In this document: positions 25,520-46,100 of the stretch, piece by piece
How the letters are laid out: the number at the start of each line of letters is the position of its first letter
How positions within the stretch are numbered: position 1 is the stretch's first letter
From: Gemmatimonas sp.
GTDB taxonomy: Bacteria > Gemmatimonadota > Gemmatimonadetes > Gemmatimonadales > Gemmatimonadaceae
Assembly: GCA_965279375.1 (NCBI GenBank)
Contig: OZ257156.1
Span: 1,792,001-1,856,000, forward strand
Direction: 5' to 3'
DNA: 64,000 nucleotides
The notes under the pieces: generated by a model
Seen by the model: the letters and a program-made list of their open reading frames with translations, nothing else
What the model was told of the DNA's origin: nothing
Databases searched by the model: none
Made by a program: the position numbers and the translations under genes

Positions 25520-27087
25520 GCGAGACGGCACAGCCGCTGACCACGCTCGCGCGGTCCGCGGCATCTAAATCGCCGTCTGACGTCTCAGGCGCGCTGCTGG
25601 CGGTGCGCGTGGATGCGGCGGACGATGTGGCAGTAGCGCTGCGCGCGCTCGATGCAGGCACGTCGGTCACCGTTGATGGCACGACAGTCGTGACCACCGA
25701 AGCGATCGACGCGGGGCACAAGATCGCGCTCCACGACATGGCCGTCGATGCGATCGTGCACAAGTACGGCGTGCCGATCGGTAGCGCGACGGAAGCGATC
25801 GCCGCAGGCGCTTGGGTGCATACGCACAACCTCGCTACGCGATTGAACGATGGTGCGGGGTACGTGCGTCGCGCGAGCTACGGATCGGTGGCGCCGTCGT
25901 ACAACGCTGCCATGCCCACGTGGGAAGGCTATCGTCGAGCCGACGGCCGCGTGGCCACGCGCAACGAGATCTGGGTGATCAACACGGTCGGCTGCGTGAA
26001 CACCGCAGCCGAACGCATCGCGCGCGCCGCAAGCGAACGATTTGCCGGAAAAGTCGATGGCATTCACGCCTTCGCGCATCCGTACGGTTGCAGTCAGCTC
26101 GGCGATGACCTGACGCACACGCAGGCAGTACTGGGCGGTCTGCTCCGCAATCCCAATGCGGGCGGCGCGCTGGTGCTCGGACTCGGCTGCGAAAACAATC
26201 AGCTACCGTCTTTCCTGCAAGCATCGGCGCCGAGCGACATGTCGCGGCTGCGTTCGTTCAACACGCAGGAAGTGGACGACGAAATCGAAGCGGGAGTGCA
26301 GGCGATCGGCGAGTTGATCGAACGCCTTGCCGCAGACCGTCGAGAGACGGTGCCCGCGTCATCGCTCGTGCTGGGGCACAAGTGCGGTGGCTCCGATGGC
26401 TTCAGTGGCCTCTCGGCGAATCCGTTGCTCGGGCGACTGGCCGACCGCGTCACATCGCTTGGCGGCACCGTCGTGTTGACGGAAGTGCCGGAGATGTTCG
26501 GCGCCGAGCAGGTGCTGCTCGATCGTGTGGTGAGTGACGCGGTGTTTGACGACGTGACGCGCATGGTGGATGAGTTCAAGGCGTACTTCGTGCGACACGG
26601 TCAGCCGGTGTACGAGAATCCCTCGCCGGGCAACAAGGCGGGCGGATTGACCACGCTCGAGGAGAAGTCGCTCGGTGCGATTCAAAAGGGTGGTCGCGCA
26701 CCAGTGACGGGCGTGCTGCGCTACGGAGAAGCGGTGCGTGCCGGCGGGCTGCAATTGCTGGAAGCGCCCGGTAACGACGGCGTCTCATCCACGGCCATGA
26801 CCGCGAGCGGCGCGACGATGCTGCTCTTTACCACGGGTCGCGGCACGCCGCTCGGCTTTCCCGTACCGACGCTCAAGGTGTCGAGCAACTCGGGTATCGC
26901 GCAGCGCAAGCCGCACTGGATCGACTTCGACGCGGGTCGCTTGCTGACCGGTGCGCGCACGATGGACGCGCTCACCGACGAACTGTTCGCGCTCGTGCTC
27001 GATGTGGCGAGTGGCCGCAAACAGGCACGCAACGAAGTGCACGGCTATCGCGAGATCGCGATCTGGAAGCATGGAGTGACGCTGTGA
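25516..27087 (+). CDS. uxaA: Altronate dehydratase
   Basis: SAF domain (GHKIAL, HTHNL), HPYGCSQLGDD, KCGGSDGFSG, ENPSPGNKAGGLTTLEEKSLG, EIAIWKHGVTL. Confidence 0.95.
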   Translation: MSETAQPLTTLARSAASKSPSDVSGALLAVRVDAADDVAVALRALDAGTSVTVDGTTVVTTEAIDAGHKIALHDMAVDAIVHKYGVPIGSATEAIAAGAWVHTHNLATRLNDGAGYVRRASYGSVAPSYNAAMPTWEGYRRADGRVATRNEIWVINTVGCVNTAAERIARAASERFAGKVDGIHAFAHPYGCSQLGDDLTHTQAVLGGLLRNPNAGGALVLGLGCENNQLPSFLQASAPSDMSRLRSFNTQEVDDEIEAGVQAIGELIERLAADRRETVPASSLVLGHKCGGSDGFSGLSANPLLGRLADRVTSLGGTVVLTEVPEMFGAEQVLLDRVVSDAVFDDVTRMVDEFKAYFVRHGQPVYENPSPGNKAGGLTTLEEKSLGAIQKGGRAPVTGVLRYGEAVRAGGLQLLEAPGNDGVSSTAMTASGATMLLFTTGRGTPLGFPVPTLKVSSNSGIAQRKPHWIDFDAGRLLTGARTMDALTDELFALVLDVASGRKQARNEVHGYREIAIWKHGVTL

Positions 27088-28610
27088 CCACCGCGCGTCC
27101 GACGTTGTCGCGTGCGCTCACGTCAGCACTGTCCGGCGACCTGCGCGTGAACGAGGCACTGTTCAACCTTCCAGAAAGGGCCGTGCAGTTCGGCACCGGT
27201 GCGTTCCTGCGTGGATTTGTCGATGCCTTCATCGATGAGGCGAATCGCCGCGGCCAGTTCCTGGGGCGCATCGTCGCGGTCGGTTCCACGGGTAGCGGTC
27301 GTGATCGCGCGCTCGCCGAGCAGGACGGGCTGTATACGTTGGCCGTGGCCGGTGTGGCTGGCGGGCGTGCCGTGGAGTCGCAGCGCGTGATCAGTGCGGT
27401 CAGTCGCGCCGTGTCGGCGAGTACGCAGTGGGCAGATGTGCTCGCGTGTGCACGTGCCCCGGAGATTCGCGTGATCTTCTCCAATACCACCGAAGCCGGT
27501 ATCGCGCGTGATCTCCGCGACGATGCACCGGAAGCGTTGGCGTTCAGTGGTAGTAGCGCACCGTTCTCGTTTCCCGCCAAACTCACGCGCTTTCTCTATG
27601 AGCGCGCGGTCGCGTTCAACTATGCGAACAGCGCGGGCGTAGTGGTGGTGCCGTGCGAGCTGATCGAAGCCAATGGAGACTTGCTGCAGCAGCTCGTGCG
27701 CGAGCAAGCTGCGCAGTGGGTGCTGGGTGATCGATTCAGTGGGTGGCTGACGGAAGCGGTGCCGTTCTGCAACACGCTTGTGGACCGGATCGTGCCGGGC
27801 GCGCCGTTAGCGACGGAGCGCGAACGGCTTGAGCAATCGCTGGGCTACAGCGATGCGCTGTTGACGACTGCCGAGCCGTACGCGCTGTTTGTGATCGAAG
27901 GGGATGCGGCGCTGGCCGCACGGCTCGGGTTCGTGGACGCCGCGGGTGTGATTCGCGTGGTTCCGGACGTGCGACCATATCGCGAGCGGAAAGTGCGTCT
28001 GCTCAACGGCACACACACCGCGATGGCCGCGATCGGTGTGCTGCATGACATCCCGACCGTGCACGCGGCGATGCAGTCGCCGGCAGTCGCGTCATTGCTG
28101 ACGCAGCTGGTGCGACAGGACCTCGTGCCGTGGCTCGACGTTCCCGATGCGGCGCCCTTTGCCGACGAAGTGCTGGACCGCTTTGCGAATCCGCAGGTGC
28201 AGCATCGGCTGACCGACATCGCGACACAGAGCACGCTCAAGTGGAAGGTGCGTCTGCTGCCGATGCTGTTGCGTCATCTCGAGGCACACAGTGGCAGTCC
28301 TCCCTCGACGCTGATCGCGGCACTGGCGGCGCAGTTGTATCTGTCGCATCCGACCGAGCGCGCGCGACGAGCGGCAGCGGGCGTTGCCGGCTTTCGCGAC
28401 GACAACGGCGATCTGGTGACGGCCCATTGGGAAGCGGCTGGCGTCGATGCGATCGATGGCTTCGTGGAGCGAGCGCTGAGGGACGAGCGCCTCTGGGACG
28501 CCGATCTGCACCACTACGACAGACTCGCTGCAGCGCTTTCCGAGTCGCTGCACCGGTTGCATCATGACGGTCCCTCCTCCCTCCTCTCTCCCGCCTTGGT
28601 CTCGTCATGA
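27084..28610 (+). CDS. uxaB: Tagaturonate reductase (altronate oxidoreductase)
   Basis: QFGTGAFLRGFVD, SNTTEAGI, SFPAKLT, PCELI, NTLVDRIVPG, KVRLLNGTHT, DRFANP. Confidence 0.92.
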   Translation: MTTARPTLSRALTSALSGDLRVNEALFNLPERAVQFGTGAFLRGFVDAFIDEANRRGQFLGRIVAVGSTGSGRDRALAEQDGLYTLAVAGVAGGRAVESQRVISAVSRAVSASTQWADVLACARAPEIRVIFSNTTEAGIARDLRDDAPEALAFSGSSAPFSFPAKLTRFLYERAVAFNYANSAGVVVVPCELIEANGDLLQQLVREQAAQWVLGDRFSGWLTEAVPFCNTLVDRIVPGAPLATERERLEQSLGYSDALLTTAEPYALFVIEGDAALAARLGFVDAAGVIRVVPDVRPYRERKVRLLNGTHTAMAAIGVLHDIPTVHAAMQSPAVASLLTQLVRQDLVPWLDVPDAAPFADEVLDRFANPQVQHRLTDIATQSTLKWKVRLLPMLLRHLEAHSGSPPSTLIAALAAQLYLSHPTERARRAAAGVAGFRDDNGDLVTAHWEAAGVDAIDGFVERALRDERLWDADLHHYDRLAAALSESLHRLHHDGPSSLLSPALVSS

Positions 28611-29902
28611 GCGCAGCGATTCCGTCGGCCTCCGCGACGGCAGCTCCCAAGATTGGAAACTACCGCTGGACCATCTGCGCGCTGCTCTTCTTCGCGACCA
28701 CGATCAACTACATCGATCGGCAGGTGCTGGGGATTCTCGCGCCGACGTTGCAGAAAGAGATCGGATGGACTGAGGTGGACTACGGCAACATCATCTCGTG
28801 GTTCACGGCGGCATACGCGTTAGGGTTTCTCGGCGTCGGCCGCATGATGGACAAGCTGGGAGTACGCGCCGGCTTTGCGATCGCGATCGTGACGTGGAGC
28901 CTCGCGGCGATGGCGCATGCGCTGGCGCGCGGCGTGTCCAGCTTCAGCGCGGCGCGCTTTGCGCTCGGGCTTGGCGAGTCGGGCAACTTTCCGGGCGCCA
29001 TCAAGACCGTGGCCGAGTGGTTCCCGGCAAAGGAGCGTGCGTTCGCGGCCGGTGTGTTTAACGCGGGATCGAACATCGGGGCGATTGCCGCGCCAATTCT
29101 CGTCCCGTGGATTGCACTGCACTGGGGTTGGCGCGAGGCGTTCGTCGTGACGGGCGCGCTGGGGTTCATTTGGCTGGCGTTCTGGCTCGCGATTTATCGC
29201 AATCCGCATCAGCATCCCAAGCTCGGCGCCGCGGAGCTCGCGTACATCAACGAAGGGCAAACACCGGTCAGCCGCTCGGTGCCGTGGAGTGAGTTGCTCA
29301 AGCACCGGCAGACATGGGCGTTCGTGACGGGTAAGGTGATGACCGACGGCATCTGGTGGTTCTATCTCTACTGGCTGCCCAAGTTTCTCGACGCGCGATT
29401 TGGCATTCAGCTTGGCAAGGTCGCGTTGCCGCTGATCGCGATCTATCTCGTGGCCGATGTCGGCTCGGTGGGCGGTGGCTGGCTTTCGGGCGCGTTTCTC
29501 AAGCTGGGGTGGTCGCTCAACAAGGCGCGCAAGATCACGATGCTGATCGCGGCGCTGTTGATCGTGCCCACGATGATTGCGCCCACGATGGGCAATCTCT
29601 GGTCGGCCGTGGCCGTCGTGAGCGTGGCCGCCGCGGCGCATCAGTGGTGGTCGGCCAATCTGTTCACGCTCACCAGCGACATGTTTCCGCGACACGCGGT
29701 CGCGTCGGTGGTCGGTGTGGGTGGCTTCTTCGGCGCACTCGCCGGCGTGGGCTTTCAGCGTCTGACGGGCGTCATGCTGCAGAGCAATGGCAACGATTAT
29801 CGCCCGATCTTCGTCATCTGTGGCCTGGCGTACGTGAGCGCGCTGCTCGTCATCCATCTGCTCGTGCCGCGCCTCGAGCCGGCGAAACTGACGGAGCGGT
29901 AG
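28607..29902 (+). CDS. exuT: MFS hexuronate transporter
   Basis: YRWTICALLFFATTINYIDRQ, GESGNFPGAIKTVAEWFP, WWFYLYWLP. Confidence 0.9.
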   Translation: MSAAIPSASATAAPKIGNYRWTICALLFFATTINYIDRQVLGILAPTLQKEIGWTEVDYGNIISWFTAAYALGFLGVGRMMDKLGVRAGFAIAIVTWSLAAMAHALARGVSSFSAARFALGLGESGNFPGAIKTVAEWFPAKERAFAAGVFNAGSNIGAIAAPILVPWIALHWGWREAFVVTGALGFIWLAFWLAIYRNPHQHPKLGAAELAYINEGQTPVSRSVPWSELLKHRQTWAFVTGKVMTDGIWWFYLYWLPKFLDARFGIQLGKVALPLIAIYLVADVGSVGGGWLSGAFLKLGWSLNKARKITMLIAALLIVPTMIAPTMGNLWSAVAVVSVAAAAHQWWSANLFTLTSDMFPRHAVASVVGVGGFFGALAGVGFQRLTGVMLQSNGNDYRPIFVICGLAYVSALLVIHLLVPRLEPAKLTER

Positions 29903-29904
29903 TC

Positions 29905-31233
29905 ATGTCGGTATCGCCGCGGACGCGGGGCGCGCTCGGTGCGGGAGTCGTCGCACTCCTCGCGGCGCTTTCATCCGCGCTGGCGATGCCGGTGAGTGTT
30001 GCGGCAGCACAAACAGGCTCCACGGCCGCGCTGCCCGGCGCCAGTAAGGAGACGGACACCAAGTCGTTGCTGGCTTCGGCGCGACTGCGCGCGCTCCCCG
30101 CACCGAAACGCGACGCGTGGCTGGCGTACGTGGAGCGCTCGAAGGCCGCGCAGGCTGCGGATCAGGCGCTGCTGCACGGCGAGCTCCAGTCCATCGGCGC
30201 CACGCGCATGACGCGCGCAGCCTTCCGCGCGGCGTCGTTCTCGTTCGATGCGCGGAGCAAGGCCACGTGGCTCGACAGCGATTCCGCACGAGCGATGATC
30301 ACGGCGATGCTGACCTATCAGACGCCGTCGGGCGGCTGGTCCAAGCACATCGACTTCATGCAAGGGCCGCGCGCTCCGGGGCAGAGCTTCTTCTCGGAGA
30401 ACGAGCAGTGGCAGTACATCGCTACGATCGACAACGACGCGACCACGTCGGAGCTGCGGTTTCTCATGCGCGCGATCGCGGCGCGCGGCAATGCCGCCCA
30501 GTCCGAACGCATGCAGGCGTCGGTCGTGCGTGGTGTGCAGTATCTGCTGAACGCGCAGTTCCCGAATGGCTGCTGGCCGCAGGTGTGGCCGCTGCAGGGC
30601 GGCTATCACGACAACGCCACCTTCAACGACGACGCCATCGCGGAAGTGTTGGGTATCCTCGACGAGATCGCGCGCGGTGAGGCGGCGTTCGTGCCCGACT
30701 CGTTGCGCCAGCGCGCGGGAGCCGCGGTGGCCGCAGGTGCGCGTTGTATTCTCGAGGCGCAGGTCCGCGTGGATGGCACATTGACCGTGTGGGGGCAGCA
30801 GCACGATCCGCTGACGCTCGCGCCCACGAGTGCGCGCAGCTACGAACTCACCTCGCTCACGAGCAAGGAGAGCGCGGGCGTGATGGACTTCCTCATGGCG
30901 CACGACACGCTCGACGCACGCATTCCCACCGCACTGGCGGGGGCTGTGGCGTGGCTCGATGGCACCGCTATCGCCGGCATGCGTAGCGCGGGGAAGAACG
31001 GACTCGTTCCTGATGCATCGGCAGGGCAGCTCTGGGCGCGCATGTACGAGATCGGCACCAATCGCCCGATCTTCTCCAATCGCGATGGCATCAAGCTCTA
31101 CGGATTCAACGCACTGACCGATCGTCGCGAAGGGTACGGTTGGTACTCCGATCTGCCGGCGGCCGCGATCAAGCGCTACAGGCAATGGCTTGCCGCCCGC
31201 GGCAAGGCACCTTCCACTTCGAAGCAACGCTGA
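29905..31233 (+). CDS. Pectate lyase, PL10 (PelA/Pel-15E) family, Sec signal
   Basis: QTPSGGWSK, TIDNDAT, QFPNGCWPQVWP, TFNDDA, WGQQHD, ARSYEL, WARMYE, RREGYGWY. Confidence 0.9.
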   Translation: MSVSPRTRGALGAGVVALLAALSSALAMPVSVAAAQTGSTAALPGASKETDTKSLLASARLRALPAPKRDAWLAYVERSKAAQAADQALLHGELQSIGATRMTRAAFRAASFSFDARSKATWLDSDSARAMITAMLTYQTPSGGWSKHIDFMQGPRAPGQSFFSENEQWQYIATIDNDATTSELRFLMRAIAARGNAAQSERMQASVVRGVQYLLNAQFPNGCWPQVWPLQGGYHDNATFNDDAIAEVLGILDEIARGEAAFVPDSLRQRAGAAVAAGARCILEAQVRVDGTLTVWGQQHDPLTLAPTSARSYELTSLTSKESAGVMDFLMAHDTLDARIPTALAGAVAWLDGTAIAGMRSAGKNGLVPDASAGQLWARMYEIGTNRPIFSNRDGIKLYGFNALTDRREGYGWYSDLPAAAIKRYRQWLAARGKAPSTSKQR

Positions 31234-32711
31234 TGTCCGACAAGTCGCTGCAATCGCGTCGGGAGTTTCTCTCGCGCATGGCCGTTGGTGCCATCACGAC
31301 GGCGTCCGGGAGCGCCTGGCTTTCGGCGTGTGCCACATCTACCGCGTCAGCACGAGCAGCGTCCGGCGGCGTGGCGAGTGCTGGGACCGCGACTGGGTCG
31401 GCGGCGGGTTGGTCGGTGGTGCCTGGAATTCTGGCTCGCATCAAGGCACCAGTGATTCCGTCGCGCACCTTCGACGTGACGACCTATGGCGCGGTGGGTG
31501 ACGGGCAAGCCGACTGCAGCGCGGCGATTCGTGCAGCGATTGCAGCCTGTCAGCAGGCAGGTGGCGGTCGCGTGCTCGTACCGGCGGGACGCTATCTCAC
31601 CGGACCGATTCATCTGTCGAGCCGCATGGAGCTGCACGTCGCTCGCAACGCAACACTGCTCTTTCACACCGACCCAGCGCGCTATCTGCCGGCGGTGCTC
31701 ACGCGCTTTGAAGGCGTGGAGCTGTACAACTACTCGCCGCTGATCTACGCGCTCGATGCCGTGGATGTAGCGGTGACGGGTGAAGGAACGCTCGACGGGC
31801 AGGCCGATGCCGACCACTGGTGGCCGTGGAAGGGTGGCAAGGAGTGGGGACGCGGCGACAAGAATCAGCTTGCGGCGCGCGATCGATTGCTGGCGATGAG
31901 CGAGCGGCAGGTACCTGTCGCGCAACGCCAGTTTGGTGAGGGCGACTACCTGCGCTCGTCGTTCGTGCAGATGTATCGATGCCGCAATGTCCTGATCAGT
32001 GGTGTGACCATCGTGCGCTCACCGATGTGGGAGATTCATCCGGTACTGTCGCAGAACGTCATCGTGCGCAACGTGACGATCTCCACGCACGGCCCCAACA
32101 ACGATGGCTGCGACCCGGAGTCGTGCCGCGATGTGCTCATCGAGGGGTGCACCTTCGACACAGGTGACGACTGCATCGCGATCAAGAGTGGACGCAACGC
32201 CGATGGTCGCCGAGTGAATGTGCCGACGGAGAACGTGATCATCCGCAATTGCCGCATGAAGGACGGACATGGTGGCGTGACGATCGGCAGTGAAATCTCG
32301 GGGAGCGTGCGCCACGTGTACGTGGAGCGGTGTGAGATGGACAGTCCATCGCTCGATCGCGCGTTGCGGCTCAAGACCAACGCGATGCGCGGCGGCACCC
32401 TCGAGCACATCTACATGCGCGACGTCACCGTGGGGCAGGTGGCTGATGCCATTCTCTCGATCGACTTCACCTACGAGGAAGGCGCCGCCGGATCGTTCAT
32501 GCCCGTCGTGCGGGACATCGAGATGCAGAACGTCACGAGCACGAAGAGCAAGTACGGCCTCTACCTACGTGGTTTCCCGCAGGCGCCGATCAGCAACGTG
32601 CGCCTCATCGACTGCAAGTGGGTTGGCGTGGCCAAGCCTGATGTACTGGAACATGTGAACGGCCTGAGGCGCACCAACGTGATGGTCAACGGACAGCAGG
32701 TGAAGTCATGA
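31233..32711 (+). CDS. GH28 (exo-)polygalacturonase with Tat-lipoprotein signal
   Basis: SRREFL plus LSAC; NNDGCDPES, TGDDCIAIKSG, GHGGVTIGSE, RLKTN. Confidence 0.92.
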   Translation: MSDKSLQSRREFLSRMAVGAITTASGSAWLSACATSTASARAASGGVASAGTATGSAAGWSVVPGILARIKAPVIPSRTFDVTTYGAVGDGQADCSAAIRAAIAACQQAGGGRVLVPAGRYLTGPIHLSSRMELHVARNATLLFHTDPARYLPAVLTRFEGVELYNYSPLIYALDAVDVAVTGEGTLDGQADADHWWPWKGGKEWGRGDKNQLAARDRLLAMSERQVPVAQRQFGEGDYLRSSFVQMYRCRNVLISGVTIVRSPMWEIHPVLSQNVIVRNVTISTHGPNNDGCDPESCRDVLIEGCTFDTGDDCIAIKSGRNADGRRVNVPTENVIIRNCRMKDGHGGVTIGSEISGSVRHVYVERCEMDSPSLDRALRLKTNAMRGGTLEHIYMRDVTVGQVADAILSIDFTYEEGAAGSFMPVVRDIEMQNVTSTKSKYGLYLRGFPQAPISNVRLIDCKWVGVAKPDVLEHVNGLRRTNVMVNGQQVKS

Positions 32712-33874
32712 AGCGAATCCCCGCCGCACTGCTCTGTCTCGCGATGTCGGCGCTTGGCAGCACCGCCGTCGCGCAACGCGCCAAGCCCGCCGCCACCTCG
32801 TGGACAGTGCGCATGACCGATGCGGTGATGTCGCGCAGTCCGCAAACGAGCACGCGCTGGGACTATACGGCGGGGCTCGTGCTGTTGGCCGTGCATCGCG
32901 TGGGTCTGGCAACGGGCGATCCGAAGTACGCGGCTTATGTACAGCGCAACATGGATCAGTTCGTGGACGCGCAGGGGACCATCGTTGGCTACAAGCAGGG
33001 CGACTTCAACCTTGACCAGATCAATCAGGGGCGGCTGCTCTTTCCGCTGTTGTCCCGTACGCGTGATGCGCGCTACCGCACCGCGATCGAAACGTTGCGC
33101 GCGCAGCTTCGCGCGCAGCCGCGCACGAGCGACGGCGGCTTCTGGCACAAGCAGATCTATCCGCAGCAGATGTGGCTGGATGGGCTCTACATGGCGGAGC
33201 CGTTTTACGTCACCTACGCCAAGACGTACGGCGATACCGCCGCGTTCTCCGACGCGCTGCACCAGTTCCTGCTGCTCGCTGCGCGCGCACGTGATCCCAA
33301 GACTGGTCTCATGTATCACGCATGGGACGCGGCGCACACGCAGCCCTGGGCAGACTCGCTGACAGGCAATTCGCCCAACTTTTGGGGACGCGCGGTGGGC
33401 TGGTATCTCATGGCCGCCATGGATGTGCTCGACGAAGTGCCCGCGTCGCATCCGGATCGCGGTGCACTGCTCGAGGTCGTGCGCGAACTCGCTGCTTCGG
33501 TTGCACGCGTGCAGGATCCCGTCAGCGGACTCTGGTATCAGGTACTCGATCAGCCGGCGCGACGCGGTAACTATCGCGAGGCATCGGCGTCGAGCATGTT
33601 CGTGTACGCCTTTGCCAAAGGGGCGCGCAACGGCTGGTTGGACACGCGCTATCGTGCACTCGCAGCGCGCGGCTTTGACGGATTGGTGCGCGAGTTGGTG
33701 AAGACCGACAGCGCCGGACGTCCTTCGCTCACCGGCGTTTGCTCCGTCGCGGGGCTTGGCGGCGCCACTCGACGCGATGGCTCCTTCGCCTACTACATCA
33801 GTGAGCCAGTCGTCGCGGATGACTACAAGGGACTCGGTCCGTTCATCATGGCAGCGCTGGAGCTTGGTAAGTGA
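32708..33874 (+). CDS. GH105 unsaturated (rhamno)galacturonyl hydrolase (YteR-like)
   Basis: WDYTAG, GGFWHKQIYPQQMWLDGLYMA, FWGRAVGW, EASASSM, DDYKGLGPFIMA. Confidence 0.92.
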   Translation: MKRIPAALLCLAMSALGSTAVAQRAKPAATSWTVRMTDAVMSRSPQTSTRWDYTAGLVLLAVHRVGLATGDPKYAAYVQRNMDQFVDAQGTIVGYKQGDFNLDQINQGRLLFPLLSRTRDARYRTAIETLRAQLRAQPRTSDGGFWHKQIYPQQMWLDGLYMAEPFYVTYAKTYGDTAAFSDALHQFLLLAARARDPKTGLMYHAWDAAHTQPWADSLTGNSPNFWGRAVGWYLMAAMDVLDEVPASHPDRGALLEVVRELAASVARVQDPVSGLWYQVLDQPARRGNYREASASSMFVYAFAKGARNGWLDTRYRALAARGFDGLVRELVKTDSAGRPSLTGVCSVAGLGGATRRDGSFAYYISEPVVADDYKGLGPFIMAALELGK

Positions 33875-34632
33875 CGTCTCGTTTTTCGCTCGTCGGCAAG
33901 CGCGCGTTGGTAACCGGCGCCAGTCGTGGACTTGGTCGCGCCGCTGCAATCGCGCTCGCTGAGGCCGGTGCCGATGTGATCTGTGCCGCCTCCGAAGCGA
34001 GCCGAGCTGATGAAACTGCGCTTGCGGTGCGCGCGCTTGGTGTGCAGGCGTGGACGTTGGGCGCGGACTTGAGCGATCCGGCCGCGGCGCGCACGTTGGC
34101 GCATGACGCGGACGCGCTGGGCGCGCCGATCGACGTGCTGGTCAACAACGCCGGGACGATTCGACGACATCCCGCCGTCTCCTATCCCATGGAGGACTGG
34201 CAGTATGTGCTGCGCACGAATCTCGATTCCACGTGGGCGTTGTGTCAGGAGATCGGGCGTGGCATGGTGACACGTCGTAGCGGCAAGATCATCAACATCG
34301 CGTCGCTGCTTTCGTTCAGCGGAGGTGTGACCGTGCCCGCGTACACCGCAAGCAAGCATGCCGTGGCCGGTCTGACCAAGGCGCTGGCCAACGAGTGGGC
34401 CGCGCATGGCGTGCAGGTGAACGCCATCGCGCCCGGCTACTTTCGCACGGACAACACGCAGGCGTTGCAGGACAACCCGCAGCGCTCGCATGATATCAGC
34501 GCGCGCATTCCCGCCGGTCGTTGGGGAGAGCCTGACGACATCTCCGGTTCGATCCTCTTTCTCGCGTCATCGGCCAGTGACTACGTGAACGGTCACGTAC
34601 TCACCGTCGATGGTGGATGGATGGCCCGATGA
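33871..34632 (+). CDS. kduD: 2-dehydro-3-deoxy-D-gluconate 5-dehydrogenase (SDR)
   Basis: TGASRGLG, NNAGTIRR, YTASK, ANEWA, VDGGWMAR C-terminus. Confidence 0.88.
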   Translation: MTSRFSLVGKRALVTGASRGLGRAAAIALAEAGADVICAASEASRADETALAVRALGVQAWTLGADLSDPAAARTLAHDADALGAPIDVLVNNAGTIRRHPAVSYPMEDWQYVLRTNLDSTWALCQEIGRGMVTRRSGKIINIASLLSFSGGVTVPAYTASKHAVAGLTKALANEWAAHGVQVNAIAPGYFRTDNTQALQDNPQRSHDISARIPAGRWGEPDDISGSILFLASSASDYVNGHVLTVDGGWMAR

Positions 34633-36122
34633 TCATCGCGATCGTTGCTGCCGTTGCGGTACTCGGCGCGAACAATCCCGTCGTCCAGACAGCGCGCGCC
34701 GATACGCTGCCGTGGGCTGGTATCGTCGATGCCGCGTACGCGGGCGCGTCGGGTGCGCCATCGCCGGCGGGCATTCCGATGTTCCGGAGCGTGGGGGATG
34801 CGCTCACGCAGCTCTCGGTGAATGGCGGCACACGCACTGTCGTATTCATCAAGAACGGACGCTATCGCGAGAAGCTCACGATCGATCGGCCGCGCGTGAC
34901 GCTGCGCGGAGAAAGCCGCGACGGTGTTGTGCTGACCTTCGACGCGACGGCCGATACGCCGGCGCCCGGTGGCAGCACCTACGGCACGCGTGGCAGCTAC
35001 ACGTTGCGCATCGTGGCACCGGATTTCCGCGCCGAACATCTGACGATCGAGAACTCGTTCGACTATCCGACGAATGCCGCCAAGGCAGCGGACGACCCCA
35101 CCAAGGCAAAGAACGCGCAGGCCGTGGCGCTCATGACCGACCTGGGAAGCGATCGGGCGGTCTTCGAGGATGTCAGAATCCTCGGGCATCAGGACACGCT
35201 CTTTGCCAACAGCGGGCGCGCGTGGTTTCATGGCTGCGAGATCGCCGGCAGCGTGGACTTCATCTTTGGCGCCGGTCGCGCGGTGTTCGAGCAGTGCGAC
35301 ATCATCTCGCGCGATCGCGGCAGTGCGACGAACAACGGCTACGTGACGGCGCCGAGTACCGACAGCACGCAGGAGTACGGCTTCCTCTTTCTGCGCAGTC
35401 ATTTGAAGAAGGAGCGCGCGTCGATGGCTGCGGCGTCGGTGACGCTGGGGCGGCCGTGGCATCCCTTCGCGGATCCCAAGGTGCAGGGGAGCAGCGTGTT
35501 CATCGAGTGCGAGATGGACGACCACATCGGTGCGAAGGGGTGGGATCGCATGTCGAGCGTGGACTCCACCGGCACGCGCATCTGGTATGAGCCCGAATCG
35601 GCGCGGTTCTTCGAGTACGGCACACGTGGCGCCGGCGCCGTTCGGAGCCCGACGCGCCGCCTGTTGAAGAAGAAGGAGGCGGAGCGGTACACGCTGGCCG
35701 CCGTCTTCGGCGACTGGAATCCGGACCCGACGCGGCGGGTGGCGAAGGAGCGCGACGAGAAGCGCCCGCCGAGCCCGAGCGGGATGCAAGGATGGGTGGC
35801 CGACCAGAAGGCGCTCGATCAGCGTCCGCCGGCCGGGCGGGTGGAGGATCTGTTCGAAGGCCGATTCCCCGGGGTGCAGGTTCGCAGTATCGACGGCGGC
35901 ATCGTGGTGCAGATCCGGGGCATCCGAACGTTTAGCGGCAACACATACCCGCTCTACGTGATCGACGGGCTGCCGATCGAAGTCGGGCCGGACGGACTGA
36001 TCGGGCTCAACCCGTCGGACGTGGCGCGGATCGAGGTGCTCAAGGATCCGGCGGCGCTGGCGATGTACGGGTCGCGCGCGGCGAACGGCGTGGTGGTGAT
36101 CAAGACGAAGGGCGGGCGCTAG
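34629..36122 (+). CDS. CE8 pectin methylesterase fused to a C-terminal SusC-type TonB plug domain
   Basis: GRYREK, QAVAL, QDTL, DFIFG, LGRPW; after GDWNP the frame continues into PGVQV..IRG..PLYVIDG..LNPSDVARIEVLKD..YGSRAANGVVVIKTK. Confidence 0.9.
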   Translation: MIIAIVAAVAVLGANNPVVQTARADTLPWAGIVDAAYAGASGAPSPAGIPMFRSVGDALTQLSVNGGTRTVVFIKNGRYREKLTIDRPRVTLRGESRDGVVLTFDATADTPAPGGSTYGTRGSYTLRIVAPDFRAEHLTIENSFDYPTNAAKAADDPTKAKNAQAVALMTDLGSDRAVFEDVRILGHQDTLFANSGRAWFHGCEIAGSVDFIFGAGRAVFEQCDIISRDRGSATNNGYVTAPSTDSTQEYGFLFLRSHLKKERASMAAASVTLGRPWHPFADPKVQGSSVFIECEMDDHIGAKGWDRMSSVDSTGTRIWYEPESARFFEYGTRGAGAVRSPTRRLLKKKEAERYTLAAVFGDWNPDPTRRVAKERDEKRPPSPSGMQGWVADQKALDQRPPAGRVEDLFEGRFPGVQVRSIDGGIVVQIRGIRTFSGNTYPLYVIDGLPIEVGPDGLIGLNPSDVARIEVLKDPAALAMYGSRAANGVVVIKTKGGR

Positions 36123-36178
36123 CGCTCGCCCTGGGGCGTGACTGTGAGGTATGGACAAAACCTCTGGTCGCGCCCATG

Positions 36179-36199
36179 TTTGTTCCGTAGAAAGACAAA
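36179..36199. promoter_or_regulatory. Putative ROK operator 2 (upstream of susC)
   Basis: TTTGTT-CCGTAGAAA-GACAAA. Confidence 0.65.
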
Positions 36200-36245
36200 A
36201 GCCACGTTTGTGAGTAGTCGCAAAGGCCGCGAGCCAAACGTCGCA

Positions 36246-36266
36246 ATTGTTCGCTCACGGAACAAA
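36246..36266. promoter_or_regulatory. Putative ROK operator 3 (upstream of susC)
   Basis: ATTGTT-CGCTCACGG-AACAAA. Confidence 0.65.
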
Positions 36267-36387: not shown

Positions 36388-39300
36388 ATGCGTTGGAACT
36401 GGAGGCTCGGCTCGGCTTTCATCGCCGCGTTTGCGCTCGCCGCTCAGCCTGCCGCGGCGCAGCAGGCGACCGGGCGCATCACCGGCATCATCGTCAGTGA
36501 AGGCGCCGGAACGCCACTGACCAGCGTCGGTGTCGGGGTGGTCGGCACGTCGCTTGGTGCACGCACCGGCACGGATGGCCGCTACACCATCGTGAACCTG
36601 GCCCCCGGACGCTACATCCTGCGCGCGCAGCTCATCGGCTACGCGGCGCGGATCGACACGGTCACCGTCGGCATCGGGCAGACGGTCACCGCGGACTTCA
36701 AGCTCAAGCCGGTGAACGTCACGCTCGATCAGGTGGTCGTGGTCGGCTACGGCACGCAGAAGCGCTCCGACCTGACGGGTTCAGTCACCTCGGTGCAGCC
36801 CAACGTCGATCGCACCCCGATCACCTCTGTCGAACAGACGCTGCAGGGTACCGCACCCGGCGTGCAGGTGACGCAGGCGTCGTCGGCGCCGGGCGGCGGC
36901 ATGTCGATTCGCATCCGCGGCGGCTCGTCGGTCAACGGCAACAACGAACCGCTCTACGTCATCGACGGCTTCCCGGTGGAGAACGATTTCTCCACGTCGA
37001 GCTCGCTGGACGGTGGTCGCGCTGGCACGACGCCGTCGAATCCGCTCGCCGCGCTCAACCCGAACGACATCGCGTCCATCGAAATTCTCAAGGACGCATC
37101 GGCGACGGCCATCTATGGATCGCGCGGCGCCAACGGCGTCGTACTCATCACCACCAAGCGTGGCGATGGATCGAAGCCCAAGCTCGCGATCGATGTCTAC
37201 CAGGGCCAGCAGGTGGTGGCGCATCGCTATGAACTGCTCAACGGCACCGAATTCGCGCAGTTTGCCAACGCGTGGGCCGCGACGCAGAACCTGACGCAGC
37301 CGTTTGCCGACCCGACGGTCTTTGGTGCGGGCACGGACTGGCAGGATCGCATCTTCCGTCAGGCATCCATCCAGAACGCGCAGCTCAGCATCTCCGGCGG
37401 CTCGTCGTCCAAGAACGCGACGCGCTATTCGCTCTCGGGGGGCGTTTTCCAGCAGCAGGGCGTGGTCGACAACTCCGACTTCAAGCGCCTCTCGATGCGT
37501 GCGACGCTCGACCAGATGGTGGGTGAGAAGCTCAAGCTCGGCTCCAACGTGCTCGTGTCGCGCGTGAACAGCTCGCAGATCCCGACGGACGGCGCGCTCA
37601 ACGCGAACGCCGGCGCCGTGGGTGCCGCGCTGCAGTATCCGTCGATCATGAACCCGTATCGCGCCGACGGCACCTACACGCTGCTCGGCACGGACTTCCC
37701 CAAGGCACTGCTCGACCTCGGCATCTCGGCGGGCAACGTCCCCAACCCGATGGCGTCCGCGCTCGAAGTGAATGACAAGCTGTTCGACACGCGCGTGCTG
37801 GCCAACGTCGCTGGCGACTACAAGCTGCCCTTCGGATTCAGCTGGCGTTCGACGGTCGGCAGCGATCTCTCGTTCCGCGGTCGCGATACGTACTATCCGC
37901 GCACCACGCTGCAGGGCTTTGGTCAGAACGGTCGCGCCATTCGCGGCACGACCAACAACACCAGCTTCCTCAACGAAAACACGCTCAACTGGAACAAGAG
38001 CTTCGGTTCGGCGCATGTGATCTCGGCGGTGGCCGGCTACTCGCGTCAGAAGCTCAACTCCACGCGCACCGACATGCGCAACAGCAACTTCGTCAGTGAT
38101 ATCACCGGCTTCGAGAACATCGGTGCTGGTGCGCAGGCGGGCGGCGCCAACGTGTCGTCGGGACGTACGCAATGGACCTTGGCCTCGTATCTGGGCCGAG
38201 TGAACTACACGCTGCTCGACCGCTACCTGTTCTCGGTCAGCGGTCGCCGCGATGGATCGTCGCGGTTTGGTGCGGACAACCGATGGGGTGTCTTTCCCGC
38301 AGGCGCGCTCGGCTGGCGTCTGTCGGAAGAGCCGTTCATGCGTCGCTTCAGCTGGATCAACAACCTCAAGCTGCGCGCGACGTACGGTGAAGTCGGCAAC
38401 CCGTCGATCTCTCCTTATCAGTCGCTCACGCGATTGACCGCCCAGCAGTACACGTTCAACGGCGCGCTGGCCCCGGGCTACTATCCCGCAGCGATCGGTA
38501 ACCCGACGCTGAGCTGGGAGTCCACCAAGCAGACGGACCTCGGTCTCGACCTGAGCGCCTTCAGCGGTCGCATCGACATCACCGTGGACCAGTACCGCAA
38601 GAAGACAGATAACCTGCTGCTGCAGATCGACCTGCCGTCGGAAGTCGGCTATCCGAGCGCGTTCGTCAACGCCGGCTCGATCGAGAACAAGGGTTTCGAA
38701 GCGGGCGTGACCGTCAAGCTGTTCGACGCCGAAGCGAAGACCGGCTTCCGCTGGTCCACCACGTTCAACTACACGCGCAACCGTAACCGTGTGCTCGATC
38801 TCGGTGGCGTGAGCCGCATCTTCCCCACGCAGCAGACCGCGTCGGATATCAACGCCACGTCAAGCGTGGTGCAGGTGGGTCAGCCAATCGGCGCCTTCTT
38901 CGGATTCAAGACGGGCGACCTGTTCCGCGACTCCACGACGCTCAACGCGTGGCGCGCCAAGACCCGCTTTGCCAGTGGCACGGCGCCGGGACTCGGCAAC
39001 CGCATGTACATCGACATCAATGGTGACAGCATCATCGACGCCAACGATCGCACGATCATCGGCGACCCGACGCCCAAGTACGTCGTCGGCTGGAGCAACA
39101 ACATCTCGTGGAAGGGTTTCGACCTCAGCGCCCTCATCGATGGTGTGCAGGGCAACAAGATCCTCAACCTGAACAACCTGCGCCTCAACGGCGCGTCGCC
39201 AGCGCTCAACGTGACGGCGGAGCGCTTCTACGACGCGTGGAGCCCGACCAACCCGGACGGCAAGTATCAGCGCGTGGGCGCGGGTGCCGGCTTCCTGAAC

Positions 39301-39573
39301 GCCGACATCACGTCGGAGCTGCTGGAGGACGGGTCGTTCTTCCGCCTGCGCACCATCTCGCTGGCGCGTCAGATTCCGCCCAAGTGGCTGCGTCAGTCGA
39401 ACGTGACGGCGCGTGCGTATGTCACCGGCCAGAACGTGGTGACGTGGACCAAGTACACCGGCTTCAATCCCGACGTGAGCTCGATCAGCGTCGGCAATCT
39501 CAATCGTGGCGTCGACGTCGGTGCGTATCCGCTTGCGCGCACCTGGACGGTCGGCCTGAACATCAACTACTGA
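36388..39573 (+). CDS. susC: SusC/RagA family TonB-dependent outer-membrane transporter
   Basis: Signal peptide, N-terminal extension domain, [79 protein letters not shown]; GAGGA RBS. Confidence 0.95.
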   Translation: [1061 protein letters not shown]

Positions 39574-39582
39574 CCGGCGGAC

Positions 39583-41178
39583 ATGGCCATGCTCAAGCGC
39601 TTCCTGTTCGGCGTCGGCACCGCACTGACGCTCGCCGGCACCACCGGCTGCAACGACCAGAAATTCCTCACCGAAGTGCCGTACGACTTCGTGGGGCCCG
39701 AGAATTTCTACAAGACCTCCGGTGACGCCCTCGCGGCCATCGCCGGCGTGTACGCCACGTCGCTCCACACGACGGGCGACAACTACTACGGTCGCAACTT
39801 CGTCATGCTCAGCGAGTTCATGACGGAAATGCAGACGGTCTACCTCAGCGCGACCAACGAACGCTCGCTCGTCGACAACTACACGTTCACCGCGTCGCAT
39901 GCCTACATCTACAGCACGTGGCAGGGCGCGTATCAGGGGATCAATCGCGCCAACTCGGTCATCGGGCGCGTGCCAGACATCAACATGGACCAGCCGCTGC
40001 GCGATCGGATCGTCGCGGAGGCGAAGTTCCTGCGCGCGCTGCACTACTTCAACCTCGTCCGACTCTTTGGCGGCGTGCCGATGCCGCTCGTTGAGACGCA
40101 GTCCATCGACAATCTGCAGAATCCGCGGGCGACGGACGCCGACGTGTGGACGCAGATCATCAAGGACCTGACCGAGGCGTCAGGCGTGCTGCCGTCGCGC
40201 TACACTGGCACTGACATCGGTCGCGCGACGCGCGGGGCAGCCAAGACGATGCTGGCCAAGGCGTACCTGCATCGCGCGAGCATCGCGGCCGCCGGCGCAG
40301 CCACGAAGACGAGCGACTATCAGAACGCGTTGCGCCTGTTGGGCGAAGTGAAGGCCAACGATGGCTACTCGCTGGTGTCGGACTTCTCGACGCTCTTCGA
40401 CGGCGTGAACGAGAACAACAACGAAGTCATCTTCGACATTCAGTGCTCACGGTCCAACGGCATCGGCTGCCGTCTGTCCAATCAGGTTGCGCCGCGCCTC
40501 TCCAACTACGGCGCGTCGCAGAATGGCTCGTTCAGCGCCGAGCAGCCGTTTCTGGATGCGTTCGTGACCGCGGACAAGCGTCGGGCACCAACGTGGCAGC
40601 TCAACTACCCGACCAAGTCCAACACGACGGCACTCTGGACGTTCACCACGGCCGATCCGCGTGGTGCGTTCTACGTGGGCACCGCACGTACCGACTCGAC
40701 GGTCTGTCCGAACATGGGCAAGTTCCTCGACAAACAGTCGGTGACGGCCGGCAACGACGAGCCGAACTACATCATCCTGCGCTACGCCGACAACCTTCTG
40801 ATGGAGTCGGAGATCAACAACGAACTCACGGGCCCCACGGCGGCGGCGTACACGCCGATCAATCAAGTGCGCAATCGCGCTGGTATCGGTGATCTCGTGG
40901 CGGGACTCTCGCAGGCCGCCTTCCGTGACTCGGTGTTCGCGCAGCGTCGTCTCGAGCTGGCGATGGAAGGCCCCAACGGCTACTTCGACTCGCAGCGCAA
41001 CTGGACGTGGTCCAAGGCACGCATCGAAGCGAACATGGCCGTCGGCAACGCACTCCGCTTCCGTTCCAGCCGCTATCCCAAGTTCCAGACGGCGGTAGCG
41101 GACAAGTTCAAGCTGATGCCGATCCCGCAGCGCGCGCGTGATCTCAACCCCAAGCTCACGCAGAACACGGGCTGGTAG
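39583..41178 (+). CDS. susD: SusD/RagB family glycan-binding lipoprotein
   Basis: Lipobox TTGC, AEAKFLRALHYFNLVRLFGGVP, LRYADNLLM, RRLELAMEG, NPKLTQNTGW. Confidence 0.95.
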   Translation: MAMLKRFLFGVGTALTLAGTTGCNDQKFLTEVPYDFVGPENFYKTSGDALAAIAGVYATSLHTTGDNYYGRNFVMLSEFMTEMQTVYLSATNERSLVDNYTFTASHAYIYSTWQGAYQGINRANSVIGRVPDINMDQPLRDRIVAEAKFLRALHYFNLVRLFGGVPMPLVETQSIDNLQNPRATDADVWTQIIKDLTEASGVLPSRYTGTDIGRATRGAAKTMLAKAYLHRASIAAAGAATKTSDYQNALRLLGEVKANDGYSLVSDFSTLFDGVNENNNEVIFDIQCSRSNGIGCRLSNQVAPRLSNYGASQNGSFSAEQPFLDAFVTADKRRAPTWQLNYPTKSNTTALWTFTTADPRGAFYVGTARTDSTVCPNMGKFLDKQSVTAGNDEPNYIILRYADNLLMESEINNELTGPTAAAYTPINQVRNRAGIGDLVAGLSQAAFRDSVFAQRRLELAMEGPNGYFDSQRNWTWSKARIEANMAVGNALRFRSSRYPKFQTAVADKFKLMPIPQRARDLNPKLTQNTGW

Positions 41179-41185
41179 TCCGTCG

Positions 41186-44100
41186 CTAGCGGCGAACGGG
41201 AGTGGTTAACCGCACGTAGTTCACCTGCAACGCGCTCGCCGATTTCGGCGGGCGCGTTGTGCTTTGTCCCGACGCAAAGAGGCCGAACTTGGCGCCCACC
41301 CACTTGCCTTCACGGGCGGTGAACGGCGTGGATACCTCAACGAAGGGCGCGCCACCTATGCTGTAGGCAAAGCGGCAGACGCCGCCGGCACGTACCTGCA
41401 CGCGCGCGACGACATCGGCCGATGCGAGCGTCTGCAGCACCTCCACGGTCTCAGGGGTGCCCTTGTCTGCATCGCGCACACGTGCCGATACGAGCTGCCA
41501 CGTGGATGGTGTGTCGGGCGCAGGTCGCAGGCCAATCCAGGCATAGTCCAGCCCGAAGACGATCAGCCCAAACGACTCCCCGGCGTTCGCCTTGTTCACG
41601 GACAAGCGCGCGGACACATCGAACGAGTCGGCGAGGAACTTCTGCAGCAGCAGGTTAGGTGCGTCCCACAGGTTGCGCGCCGGCGCCGCCAGCGGCTGTG
41701 CGTTCAAGCGCAGCACACCGCGTGCCGAGTCCATCGCAAACCACTCGGCGCGCGGATTGGCCTGCCATTGCCACTGCAGTCCGATCGTGGACGTGGAGAA
41801 CTCATCGCCGGCCTGCATTGCGAGCGGAGAGGCCGCGGCGCTGTCGCCGATGCGCGGTGTCGTGCCGCGCGAGACAGGTGTGCCCGTTGTGTCGTTCTCG
41901 CTGGCATTGCCGATGACTGGCCAACCGTCAGCGCGCCAACGCATCGGCTGCAGGTGCACAATGCGACCGTACGCGCCCTTGTCCTGAAAGTGCAGAAACC
42001 AGTCGTCGCCGTTGGCCAGCGATACCCACGCACCTTGATGCGGGCCGTTCACGGCAGAGGTCCCCTGGCTCATCACGGTGCGGACGTCATACGGGCCGAG
42101 CGGTGACTTCGCGCGCAGCGCCAACTGCCAGCCCGTAGCCACGCCACCTGCGGGTGCGAAGATCCAGTACCAACCATCCTTCTTGTAGAACTTGGGTCCT
42201 TCGGCGGTGGGGTGATGCACCGAGTCCTGAAAGACGAGCGTGCCGGTGTCGAGCAGCGCGCGTCCGTCCGGTGTCATGCGATGCACCACGAGCCGATGCT
42301 TGATCCCCGAGCGACTGCGGGCGTACGCGTGTACGAGATACGCTTTGCCGTCGTCATCCCACAGCGGCGTGGGATCGATGAGCCCCTTACCCGCCTGCAC
42401 GAGCACGGGCGCACTCCACGCGTCGCGCGGCGTGCGGGCACGTGTCATATAGATGCCGCGATCGGGATCGCCGTAGAAGATCCAGAACCAGCCATCGTGC
42501 TTTCTGATGGACGGTGCCCAGACGCCGTTGCCGTGCTGCGGCGTGTCGAAGGCGGTGTCGGCGAATCTCGGGATCGCGTAGTTGGCGATGGTCCAATGCA
42601 CGAGATCGCGCGAGTGCAGAATGGGGAGCCCGGGCACATGTCCAAAGCTCGACGCGGTCATCCAGAAGTCCTCGCCATCGCGAATGACGTCGGGATCTGA
42701 GTAGTCGGCGGGGAGTACGGGATTGATGAACTCCTCGGTGCGCGCAGCGGCGGATGGTACGACGACCGGCCTTGCCGCGCCGCCGGGGAACGGCACGAGA
42801 CGCGCCTCGCAGCGTCCCAGCTCACCGCTTGCGGATGGGGTGCGTGCGGTTCCGTCGACGGTCACCGTGTTGGGAATCGTCACGTTGCTTCCCGCGCCGA
42901 TGAGATGCAGCGTCGCGTTGCTGCCTTTCACCTTCACCTTGGAGGCGCTGTCGGCGATGACACCGTCGAAGCTGATGTCGAGGCGACGCGTGGCATCGTA
43001 GCCGTCGAGCGTGATCGTGCCGCCGCTGAGCAGGCGCACATGGCGCGCGAGGATGTTGCGGAACTCGGGGATCAGCGTGCCATCGCGTTCGAGTGACGCC
43101 GAGTAGTGCGAGTCCATGTAGATCGGCGCTTTGACGGCGCGGATGCAGACGTTGTCGTATTGCACGTCCTGCACGAGACCTCCGCGACTGCCGTTGGACT
43201 TGATGCGGAGCGCGTTGTCGGTGCCGTCGAACGTGACATCGGTAACGCGGATGGCGCTGGCGCCACCATTGGTCTCGCTGCCAACGGAGACGCCGTGTCC
43301 CGAATAGAAGTGGTTGTGCGCGACCGTGATGTTGCGCGTGGGACCGCTGTTGCCTGCCTTGATGGCGATGTTGTCGTCGCCCGTGTTGATGAACGAATGC
43401 ACAATCGAGACATTCGTCGCGCTCACCGGATCGATGCCGTCGGTGTTGCGCGCACCCTTGGGTGTATTGATCGTCACGCCCCACGCGGTGAAGCCATCGC
43501 CGCGATCGTAGACGACGTGAAAGTTGGGGCCGTTGCGCAGCGTGAGCTTGTAGAGCGTGAAGTCGTTCGTGCGCATCGTCTGCACGAGGCGCGGGCTCTG
43601 CTGACTGAGCGTGGTGTTGCGCGCCTGTTCGGCGAGCTCCCACCACGATGTGTTCGTGCTGCCAATCGCTGCCCAACCGCGACCGTCGATGACCCCGGGA
43701 CCCATGATGCCGCTGTGGTGGGCTCTGTCGGCGGAGATGAGTGGGCGGCAGCCACGTGCGCCAGCGCTCAGGATGCCACAGGCTCCGGGGGTTACGTCAT
43801 ATTGCCGCGGATCACGCGTGGCAAAGAGAATCGCACCGCTGTCGATGACCAGAGTCACGCCTTCGCGCAGCAGTAGTGGCCCACTCACGAAGGCGCGCTG
43901 CGTGCCTGAGGGCGCGAGATGTACCGCGGAGCCCGCCGCGCAGGCATCGATAGCTGCTTGAATGCGTGGTGCATCGCGCGTGACTTCGTCAGCCGGCTGC
44001 ACAGTGGTGTCACCGACCGGCACGACCGTCGCGCGCAGCGTGGCGCAGGCGCGCGGGACGACGGGTTCCTGGACCGTGCGCGTATCCTGTGCGGCGAGTG

Positions 44101-44248: not shown

Positions 44249-44274
44249 CAGCGGATGGCAAAGGTCAGAACGGG

Positions 44275-45708: not shown

Positions 45709-45769
45709 CGGCGGGGAGGGCGCGACGACTACGAGGTGGTAACGGGGCGCGGGGCATCGGCCCGCGACA

Positions 45770-45790
45770 TTTGTTCTGTGGGCGAACAAT
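45770..45790. promoter_or_regulatory. Putative ROK operator 4 (upstream of the PL10 / GH28-GH43 unit)
   Basis: TTTGTT-CTGTGGGCG-AACAAT. Confidence 0.65.
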
Positions 45791-46100
45791 ACAGTCAACG
45801 CTACGATCCGCCCACGCGAAAAGCAATGCTGTGAATCGGAGGGGGACTGCGGTCGCGCGCCGGGTGACGCGAGGGTCTTGGCGTGTGACGTGCGCCTCGC
45901 TCGGACGGTCGAATGACAGCGAGTCCGGTCGGATCTGCGTTCCATCACGGACGCGGCACGATTTCCGCAGTACCCGACGTCTGTCGCACTGGTGGTCGGC
46001 GGTGGCACCGTGCACCATGAAGCAGCGGGCTCGGCGCGACGCGGCGCACCCCGTAGAGGCACGAACACGGATCTCTCGCCGCGGGATGCGGAGGAGTGCA

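Follow-up and report, generated by a model that had tools for sequence, protein, structure and literature searches.

A pectin methylesterase fused to a barrel-less SusC-type plug in a Gemmatimonas galacturonan locus, and a plug-only protein family from which the plug derives

The window analyzed here is a stretch of 64,000 nucleotides from Gemmatimonas sp. (GenBank assembly GCA_965279375.1, contig OZ257156.1, positions 1,792,001 to 1,856,000 of the forward strand). The last gene of its galacturonan operon, P0001, joins a pectin methylesterase of carbohydrate esterase family 8 (CE8) to a SusC-type plug domain in a single reading frame that stays open for 497 codons (Table 1). Its ATG overlaps the stop codon of the kduD-like gene upstream, and a complete susC starts ~265 nucleotides 3' of it on the same strand. 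Both domains score above the Pfam cut-offs, Pectinesterase over residues 50-357 (E 2e-39, 135.6 bits against a cut-off of 27) and Plug (PF07715) over residues 390-488 (E 2.2e-15, 57.5 bits, profile positions 11-107 of 107). The stop codon lies 9 residues past the Plug match, and no barrel domain was found in the Pfam scan of the 497-residue protein. The original prediction of a complete CE8 domain and a SusC plug in one open frame without a barrel is therefore confirmed. The plug, put there at ~95 residues, starts ~18 residues earlier (residue ~387, nucleotide ~35787) and is ~110 residues long.

The CE8-plug fusion is real and conserved. Contigs assembled from two runs of one sample run unbroken through positions 34500-36500, with no indel and 0 differences, and neither a stop nor a frameshift breaks the junction; two further runs gave no coverage of it. 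The sample may be the source of the window itself, so these contigs are not independent support. Independent support is provided by the homologues. Among the best 120 of 917 matches, the query included, 20 combine CE8 with a plug, 18 combine CE8 with GH28 and 82 have CE8 alone, so that 19 other clusters at 90% identity carry both domains. The full fusion is present in 7 of the 87 genomes of the genus, and the concern that it might be a singleton is thereby removed. The closest of the relatives retrieved are labelled Gemmatimonadaceae. A search of the Atlas gave no usable match for the whole protein, and the plug part led to plug-only clusters. Two proteins of mixed architecture, P0150 and P0215, look chimeric and were set aside. 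CE8 is also found fused to an alpha/beta hydrolase (BD-FAE-like) or a PF09492 lyase (L159:1489-3525 (-), L161:523-2523 (+), L051:1-1593 (+)). The earlier statement that no characterized fusion of a carbohydrate-active enzyme to a plug was known to its author agrees with the literature searched, which was mostly without subscription papers and bioRxiv supplements and in which no description of a stand-alone plug or a CE8-plug fusion was found.

Table 1. Features of the fusion gene and its locus, in coordinates of the window
Feature	Coordinates	Strand	Basis
CE8-plug fusion gene P0001, 497 residues	34629..36122	+	Open reading frame, Pfam, homologues, contigs
N-terminal hydrophobic leader, residues 1-24; probable Sec signal peptide without lipobox	34629..34700	+	Judged by eye; low predicted local distance difference test (pLDDT) at residues 1-25
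PemA-like CE8 beta-helix, residues ~25-364	34701..35720	+	Pfam, structure match, catalytic alignment
Charged/Pro linker, residues 365-386; poorly conserved, disordered in model	35721..35786	+	Alignment and model
Barrel-less SusC-type plug, residues ~387-497; without TonB box	35787..36119	+	Pfam, tree, motif pattern, fold
Complete susC: N-terminal extension, TonB box, own plug, barrel	36388..39573	+	Pfam; TIGR04056 787.8 bits vs cut-off 368.25
susD	39583..41178	+	Pfam
Galacturonan operon: UxaC, UxaA-type dehydratase, mannitol-dehydrogenase-family (UxaB-type) oxidoreductase, major facilitator superfamily transporter (gene names read from Pfam families)	24056..34632	+	Pfam
Same operon, rest: PF09492 pectate lyase, GH28, GH88/GH105-type hydrolase, kduD-like short-chain dehydrogenase (gene names read from Pfam families)	24056..34632	+	Pfam
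Convergent GH28-GH43 fusion gene and second PF09492 pectate lyase, same locus	41186..46185	-	Pfam

The CE8 half has PemA (PDB 1qjv) as its best match among solved structures by sequence (E 1.3e-86). Its model is a right-handed beta-helix that matches 2ntb_A with E 4.5e-27, a root-mean-square deviation (rmsd) of 2.6, a template-modelling score of 0.87 on the target and 44% identity. D189 of P0001 is aligned with D178 of PemA. Of the other positions, whose catalytic roles we presume, Q164, D210, R275 and W277 are conserved in all 20 fusions; the pair Q188 and D189 is conserved in 19, and all six residues are intact in P0001. The sole exception among the 20, P0014, has lost the catalytic Gln-Asp pair and retained the plug. 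P0001 scores 344.2 with the NCBIfam PemA equivalog NF041896, below the cut-off of 700. These comparisons predict an active PemA-type methylesterase. The leader is hydrophobic and the first cysteine of the protein is residue 203, so that a lipobox cysteine is absent; judged by eye, the protein would therefore be exported without a lipid anchor.

The plug half, folded alone with 112 sequences, gave a pLDDT of 82.3. Above Z 3 the model has plugs from TonB-dependent transporters as its only matches, with ButC (8ypu) at an rmsd of 2.0 over 109 residues and Z 6.6, and no fold outside these transporters exceeded Z 2.9. The plug reaches the SusC signature TIGR04057 (54.2 against a cut-off of 46.2), and the protein falls short of the whole-SusC model TIGR04056 (104.5 against 368.25). 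The ratio of nonsynonymous to synonymous substitution rates, computed for 15 pairs from 6 fused genes, is 0.12-0.42 for the plug and 0.10-0.20 for CE8; for the 22-codon linker it is 0.21-1.86 over 11 computable pairs and noisy. Both the plug and the CE8 half are under purifying selection.

The plug has no TonB box. The consensus of this box in SusC proteins is given as DEVVV(V/T/I) in PMC10350073. With a loose pattern, a TonB-box-like motif was found before the plug in 27 of 31 SusC proteins, in 19 of 167 plug-only proteins and in none of the 20 fusions, which tells against the original suggestion that the plug docks the esterase on the TonB machinery. Two basal members with an N-terminal extension, P0394 and P0444, retain such a motif. 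The arginine of the IRG motif is kept in 93% and that of the YGxR motif in 98% of the 167 plug-only proteins; among 303 repeat units from 81 longer, mostly M56-type proteins, they are kept in just 53 and 38. By motif homology, R430 and K472 of P0001 are the presumed equivalents of R93 and R133 of FhuA. In FhuA, conserved arginines of the plug form salt bridges with the barrel, according to PMC11658791. According to bioRxiv 10.1101/2022.08.15.503959, residues G167, H169 and E170 of the Bt1763 plug contact the bound oligosaccharide. They map to G456, I458 and G459 of P0001, with the numbering offset fitted to five named residues of the alignment. The I458 position is I or L in 16 of the 20 fusions and the G459 position has five different residues, so the polar sugar contacts of Bt1763 are not conserved in the fusions.

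In relatives, the best matches of the P0001 plug are short stand-alone reading frames and not SusC proteins. They belong to a Gemmatimonadota plug-only family with proteins of ~150 residues, mostly lipoproteins, with a lipobox-like pattern in 146 of 174 short members. In a tree of 74 plugs, based on 115 columns only, the barrel-less plugs group apart from 16 SusC plugs in a clade of 58 rows (support 98/89), and the P0001 plug lies inside a 19-row subclade that includes the plug-only proteins P0231-P0235 and P0380. The plug of the window's susC is identical to that of P0001 at 54 of 98 residues in a local alignment; pairing of the two in the tree is nevertheless rejected by the approximately unbiased test (p 0.014), as expected from the earlier view that the plug is no fresh duplication of its neighbor. 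P0001 itself has no lipoprotein signal of its own, having no cysteine before residue 203, and an N-terminal cysteine is present in a second fusion clade and in P0490. Of 401 genomes from the bacterial family, with 9 candidates scored in each, at least 106 contain a match to the plug-only family, whose only member in the window's genome is the fusion.

The genes found around members of the plug family support its association with SusC/SusD loci. In 39 stretches around the best family matches, susC or susD lies within ~5 kb in 20, and these or a glycan-locus gene in 32; in 515 equal tiles of the window's genome the corresponding numbers are 28 and 43. Three further stretches stand outside this descriptive count, two in a glyoxalase context and one beside an ASPIC/UnbV gene. 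The loci concern unrelated glycans, with GH97, GH3, GH20 or PF10091. A recurrent arrangement of susD, an ASPIC/UnbV FG-GAP protein and a plug-only gene occurs across the order (L118, L120, L122-L124, L127, L135, L137, L139, L143), sometimes with an added GH97 or PAP2-family gene. Tandem pairs of plug-only genes occur in L116, L126, L132 and L142. In the glyoxalase context, seen in the genus (L102, L103, L104, L111, L112, L114, L115), the gene for a plug-only lipoprotein and one of the glyoxalase family are transcribed away from each other with no susCD near, and L111 has a DUF305 gene downstream. In the window's genome, all 25 SusC-type barrels found by a profile search, which more divergent barrels could escape, have a plug of their own. 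A split transporter, with the plug acting in trans to a plug-less barrel, was considered and rejected since no plug-less barrel is among these 25.

Barrel-less plugs as such are not rare. The plug profile matches 42,362 representatives at E 0.001, SusC included, and 64 longer matches that were scanned are mostly M56, TonB_C, type IX secretion system (T9SS)-sorted, VWA and Amidase_3 proteins with plug repeats. Besides the fusion, 14 short frames of the window's genome (G000:C1) end in divergent plug-like domains; two of these, near 1,291,000 and 1,316,000, are identical copies, and another, near 4,239,000, is of the M56-repeat type.

The plug has been joined to an enzyme repeatedly. It is C-terminal to CE8 in at least two lineages, N-terminal once and joined to a GDSL, CE12-like esterase once, and fusion has been undone both ways. 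In a CE8 tree of 88 rows the C-terminal fusions fall in three places, and a single origin is rejected (p 0.0097; 61 of the 88 rows, with two plug-less rows added to the constraint after the tree was seen). The plug tree also rejects it (p 0.027; 65 rows, 10 dropped), and a single origin for all enzyme-fused plugs is rejected with p 0.0006. Of the 80 CE8 loci compared, 53 of them labelled Gemmatimonadota, 7 carry the fusion (one truncated at the end of its contig). In 4 more (L028, L029, L030, L032) the next same-strand gene encodes a separate plug-only lipoprotein, 2 have a plug-only gene elsewhere in the cluster and 67 show no plug, either fused or nearby; many of the contigs are short, so the counts of fused and adjacent plugs are lower bounds. 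The unfused pair of CE8 and plug-only gene corresponds to the precursor state of the fusion, and in the plug tree the second fusion clade has the plugs of L028 and L032 as its sister group (100/99). In the lipoprotein P0490, a one-member cluster on 2 contigs, the domains stand the other way round, with the plug in front of CE8; no further case was found in 3 metagenome-scan loci or 401 phylum genomes. P0012 has a CE8 of the window's clade and a plug outside the plug group of that clade, possibly a separate re-fusion.

In the genome G473, CE8 ends without a plug, and it is a GDSL esterase that carries one, of a different lineage, at its C-terminal end (P0540, L184:1918-3024 (+), 369 residues, with 11 full-length cluster members). 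This gene is tail-to-tail with the pectin susD orthologue, whose product is 75% identical to the SusD of the window. The GDSL domain scores above the Pfam cut-off, and its best enzyme matches are rhamnogalacturonan acetylesterases (1deo, E 2.4e-15) and YxiM; the PaeY model gives 59.6 bits against a cut-off of 1000. A search of 401 genomes of the family and the 86 remaining genomes of the genus gave no further GDSL-plug fusion. Four genomes that are 95-99% complete (G475, G472, G012, G476) have the window's plug subtype alone, with a cysteine-free leader, and CE8 and GH28 were not found in them. Their kind of plug (P0231-P0234, plug alone with a cysteine-free leader) is nested among fused plugs, which suggests loss of the enzyme, a direction that the tree cannot fix. 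The earlier proposal that the plug serves the esterase is weakened by these four genomes and by the other esterase that carries the plug in the fifth. A search among proteins of 273-870 residues for other enzyme-plug fusions returned only CE8 and one small-barrel fusion; it missed the GDSL fusion and is therefore not sensitive. The small-barrel case, P0137, joins an outer-membrane barrel (PF13505) to a plug, and L107:8133-9271 has separate adjacent plug and PF13505 genes beside uxaC.

The position of the genes is informative on how such fusions could arise. The fusion gene was described earlier as directly upstream of susC; this holds in the window and is not a conserved trait, since susC is the next same-strand gene in only one of the seven fused genus loci. 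Two of the seven have susD tail-to-tail. In unfused pectin loci a GDSL gene is often tail-to-tail with susD, and the same slot also holds plug-only genes, so that gene order predicts CE8 and GDSL as the genes able to capture a plug. Outside pectin loci, the plug gene and the neighboring enzyme gene mostly point away from or towards each other, leaving less chance to fuse. Three of five genomes with unfused CE8 that were tested have no plug-only gene at all, and the pectin locus therefore does not need a plug. A scan of 35900-36500 of the window for promoters and terminators saw none and is uninformative. Further downstream, the GH28-GH43 fusion gene (41186-44353 (-)) is convergent with susD, and an S41 peptidase with a PDZ domain lies at 45468-47657 (+); in several relatives its orthologue delimits the pectin locus on the downstream side, whether susCD intervenes or not.

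The reading that we favor, tentatively and at slightly under an even chance, is that the plug is an autonomous, TonB-independent accessory of SusC importers that has captured an adjacent enzyme gene together with its signal peptide, co-location of the esterase being a by-product. For localization, enzyme activity, SusC binding and the mechanism of capture we infer the following. P0001 would be a single exported, probably periplasmic, non-lipidated protein in which a flexible linker connects an active PemA-type methylesterase to a folded plug. The plug would most likely bind a SusC-type barrel through its retained barrel-facing surface, and the missing TonB box implies that it would act without TonB. 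The usual slot of the plug gene may lie in the gap that separates the enzyme operon from the susCD pair, in many cases tail-to-tail with susD, where a secreted-enzyme gene placed head-to-tail before it could capture the plug: CE8 in most pectin loci, GDSL in one lineage. In the window's lineage the plug would have lost its own lipoprotein anchor and come to use the signal peptide of the esterase, which may then be kept near the importer as a by-product that is perhaps mildly useful. The genomes with the plug alone, and the plug-free CE8 beside a GDSL-plug in G473, count for an autonomous plug. The readiness of CE8 to fuse here (18 of 120 with GH28, others with a lyase or an alpha/beta hydrolase) counts for capture, and the retention of both arginines, unlike in the M56-type half-plug repeats, also speaks for this interpretation. 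Several observations pull the other way. The reference proteins behind the neighborhood count were picked after their neighbors had been seen, and the genomes are kin, so the count is a description and not a test; in 7 of the 39 loci the vicinity lacks a glycan-locus gene, and four of these belong to the glyoxalase context. As all 25 barrels have a plug of their own, the lumen is normally occupied, and a second plug would have no evident site or time to bind. In four of the seven fused genus loci susCD was not found in the DNA downstream of the fusion, and in two of these four genomes (76% and 85% complete) a close pectin SusD was not found either. All three enzyme-plug arrangements seen here involve pectin esterases, which fits a selected tether equally well.

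Selection for such a tether, the leading idea put forward earlier, is the main alternative, at around one chance in four in our judgment: the plug would dock the de-esterase on SusC, and methyl or acetyl groups would be removed from oligogalacturonides as they come in, ahead of GH28, GH105 and the lyases. It accounts for an esterase being every partner found: the plug follows CE8 in P0001, precedes it in P0490 and is attached to a second, unrelated esterase fold in P0540, and a single origin of the enzyme-fused plugs is rejected. Fusion to the GH97, GH3, GH20 or ASPIC/UnbV neighbors was not seen in the 39 plug-family loci, and purifying selection on the plug continues after fusion. However, most CE8 proteins are plug-free (100 of the 120 best matches, and the 67 of 80 loci given above), plug-only genes are missing from three of the five pectin-locus genomes tested, loss has occurred both ways, and plugs without an enzyme exist. 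Gene order alone predicts the CE8 and GDSL partners, while the mostly divergent or convergent plug genes of non-pectin loci have less chance to fuse. A trans-acting plug adaptor, similarly possible but doubtful, would bind SusC importers from the periplasm and enter or cap the barrel when the resident plug is displaced; through repeated fusion it would have become a tag that recruits pectin de-esterases to the importer exit.

The plug could instead be a generic envelope-binding module that binds peptidoglycan, an outer-membrane protein or itself rather than SusC, and anchors its fusion partner. The barrel-less, often tandem plugs with M56, TonB_C, T9SS sorting, VWA and Amidase_3 domains in the 64 proteins scanned, the tandem plug-only gene pairs (L116, L126) and the family members outside glycan loci would agree with this, but the M56-type repeats are mostly half-plugs without the kept arginines and may be a different device, and the plug-only family to which the P0001 plug belongs shows a strong association with SusCD and glycan loci; we consider such a module unlikely. 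A repurposed glycan-binding role, in which the plug would act like a carbohydrate-binding module and hold pectic oligosaccharide for the esterase, also seems improbable. The layout of enzyme, linker and module is that of enzymes with carbohydrate-binding modules. The Bt1763 plug touches sugar, and the isolated FepA plug, which does not fold alone, binds substrate weakly, as stated in PMC11658791. Against it, the H169 and E170 equivalents, I458 and G459, are not conserved polar contacts, and the family occurs in loci for unrelated glycans and in genomes where GH28 and CE8 were not found. A TonB docking site or decoy is very improbable: the plug is the part of transporters that TonB pulls and the basal P0394 and P0444 retain the motif, yet the fusions have none and plug-only proteins rarely do. 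Least probable of all, to the point of being nearly negligible, is an assembly artefact or a decaying susC-duplication relic read through from CE8. The nearness of a susC with a 54/98-identical plug would suit a relic, whereas the fusion recurs in 19 other clusters, its plug is kept by purifying selection, and susCD is inverted or absent beside six of the seven fused genus loci. Together with the rejected pairing with the window's SusC plug, these observations refute this explanation as far as sequence allows.

What is new is a plug repeatedly joined to pectin esterases. Plug domains are usually described as parts of TonB-dependent barrels, and plug-only proteins are found in the 106 or more family genomes counted above. 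Fusion with an easily assayed esterase offers a handle on this family, since fractionation and co-purification of the esterase would reveal the destination of the plug. Should the plug bind SusC, glycan importers would have a component that has so far gone undescribed, relevant to the fate of a barrel during displacement of its resident plug; if it does not, the fusions are still a record of repeated domain capture in pectin loci. The finding also corrects an annotation that shows "pectinesterase" only.

P0001 can be compared with several known systems. It shares its fold and catalytic positions with the CE8 enzymes PemA of Erwinia chrysanthemi (PDB 1qjv, 2ntb, 2nsp) and that of Yersinia enterocolitica (3uw0); PemA is a single domain, whereas P0001 has CE8, a linker and a plug. 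With the plugs of SusC/RagA proteins (Bt1763 5t3r/6zlt, dextran SusC 8aa4, ButC 8ypu, RagA 6sli) it shares the full fold, the core motifs and the arginines; unlike them it has no barrel, N-terminal extension or TonB box, its apical loop is short and its sugar-contact positions are unconserved. BT1139, BT4200 and BT4324 of Bacteroides thetaiotaomicron are described as likewise having a plug without a barrel and were set aside by the authors of bioRxiv 10.1101/2023.03.17.533168. P0001 differs from plug-only proteins in being enzyme-fused and without a lipobox. BamP was rejected as a precedent, since the mentions of "plug" in PMC12611786 concern the T9SS plug only. The Bacteroides utilisomes, in which SusCD is assembled with a bound glycosidase and binding lipoproteins (bioRxiv 10.1101/2022.08.15.503959), are a precedent for an enzyme held at a SusC importer. 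If the adaptor reading is true, the fusion would be a periplasmic counterpart of the utilisome, with the esterase as a built-in reporter for the plug-only family.

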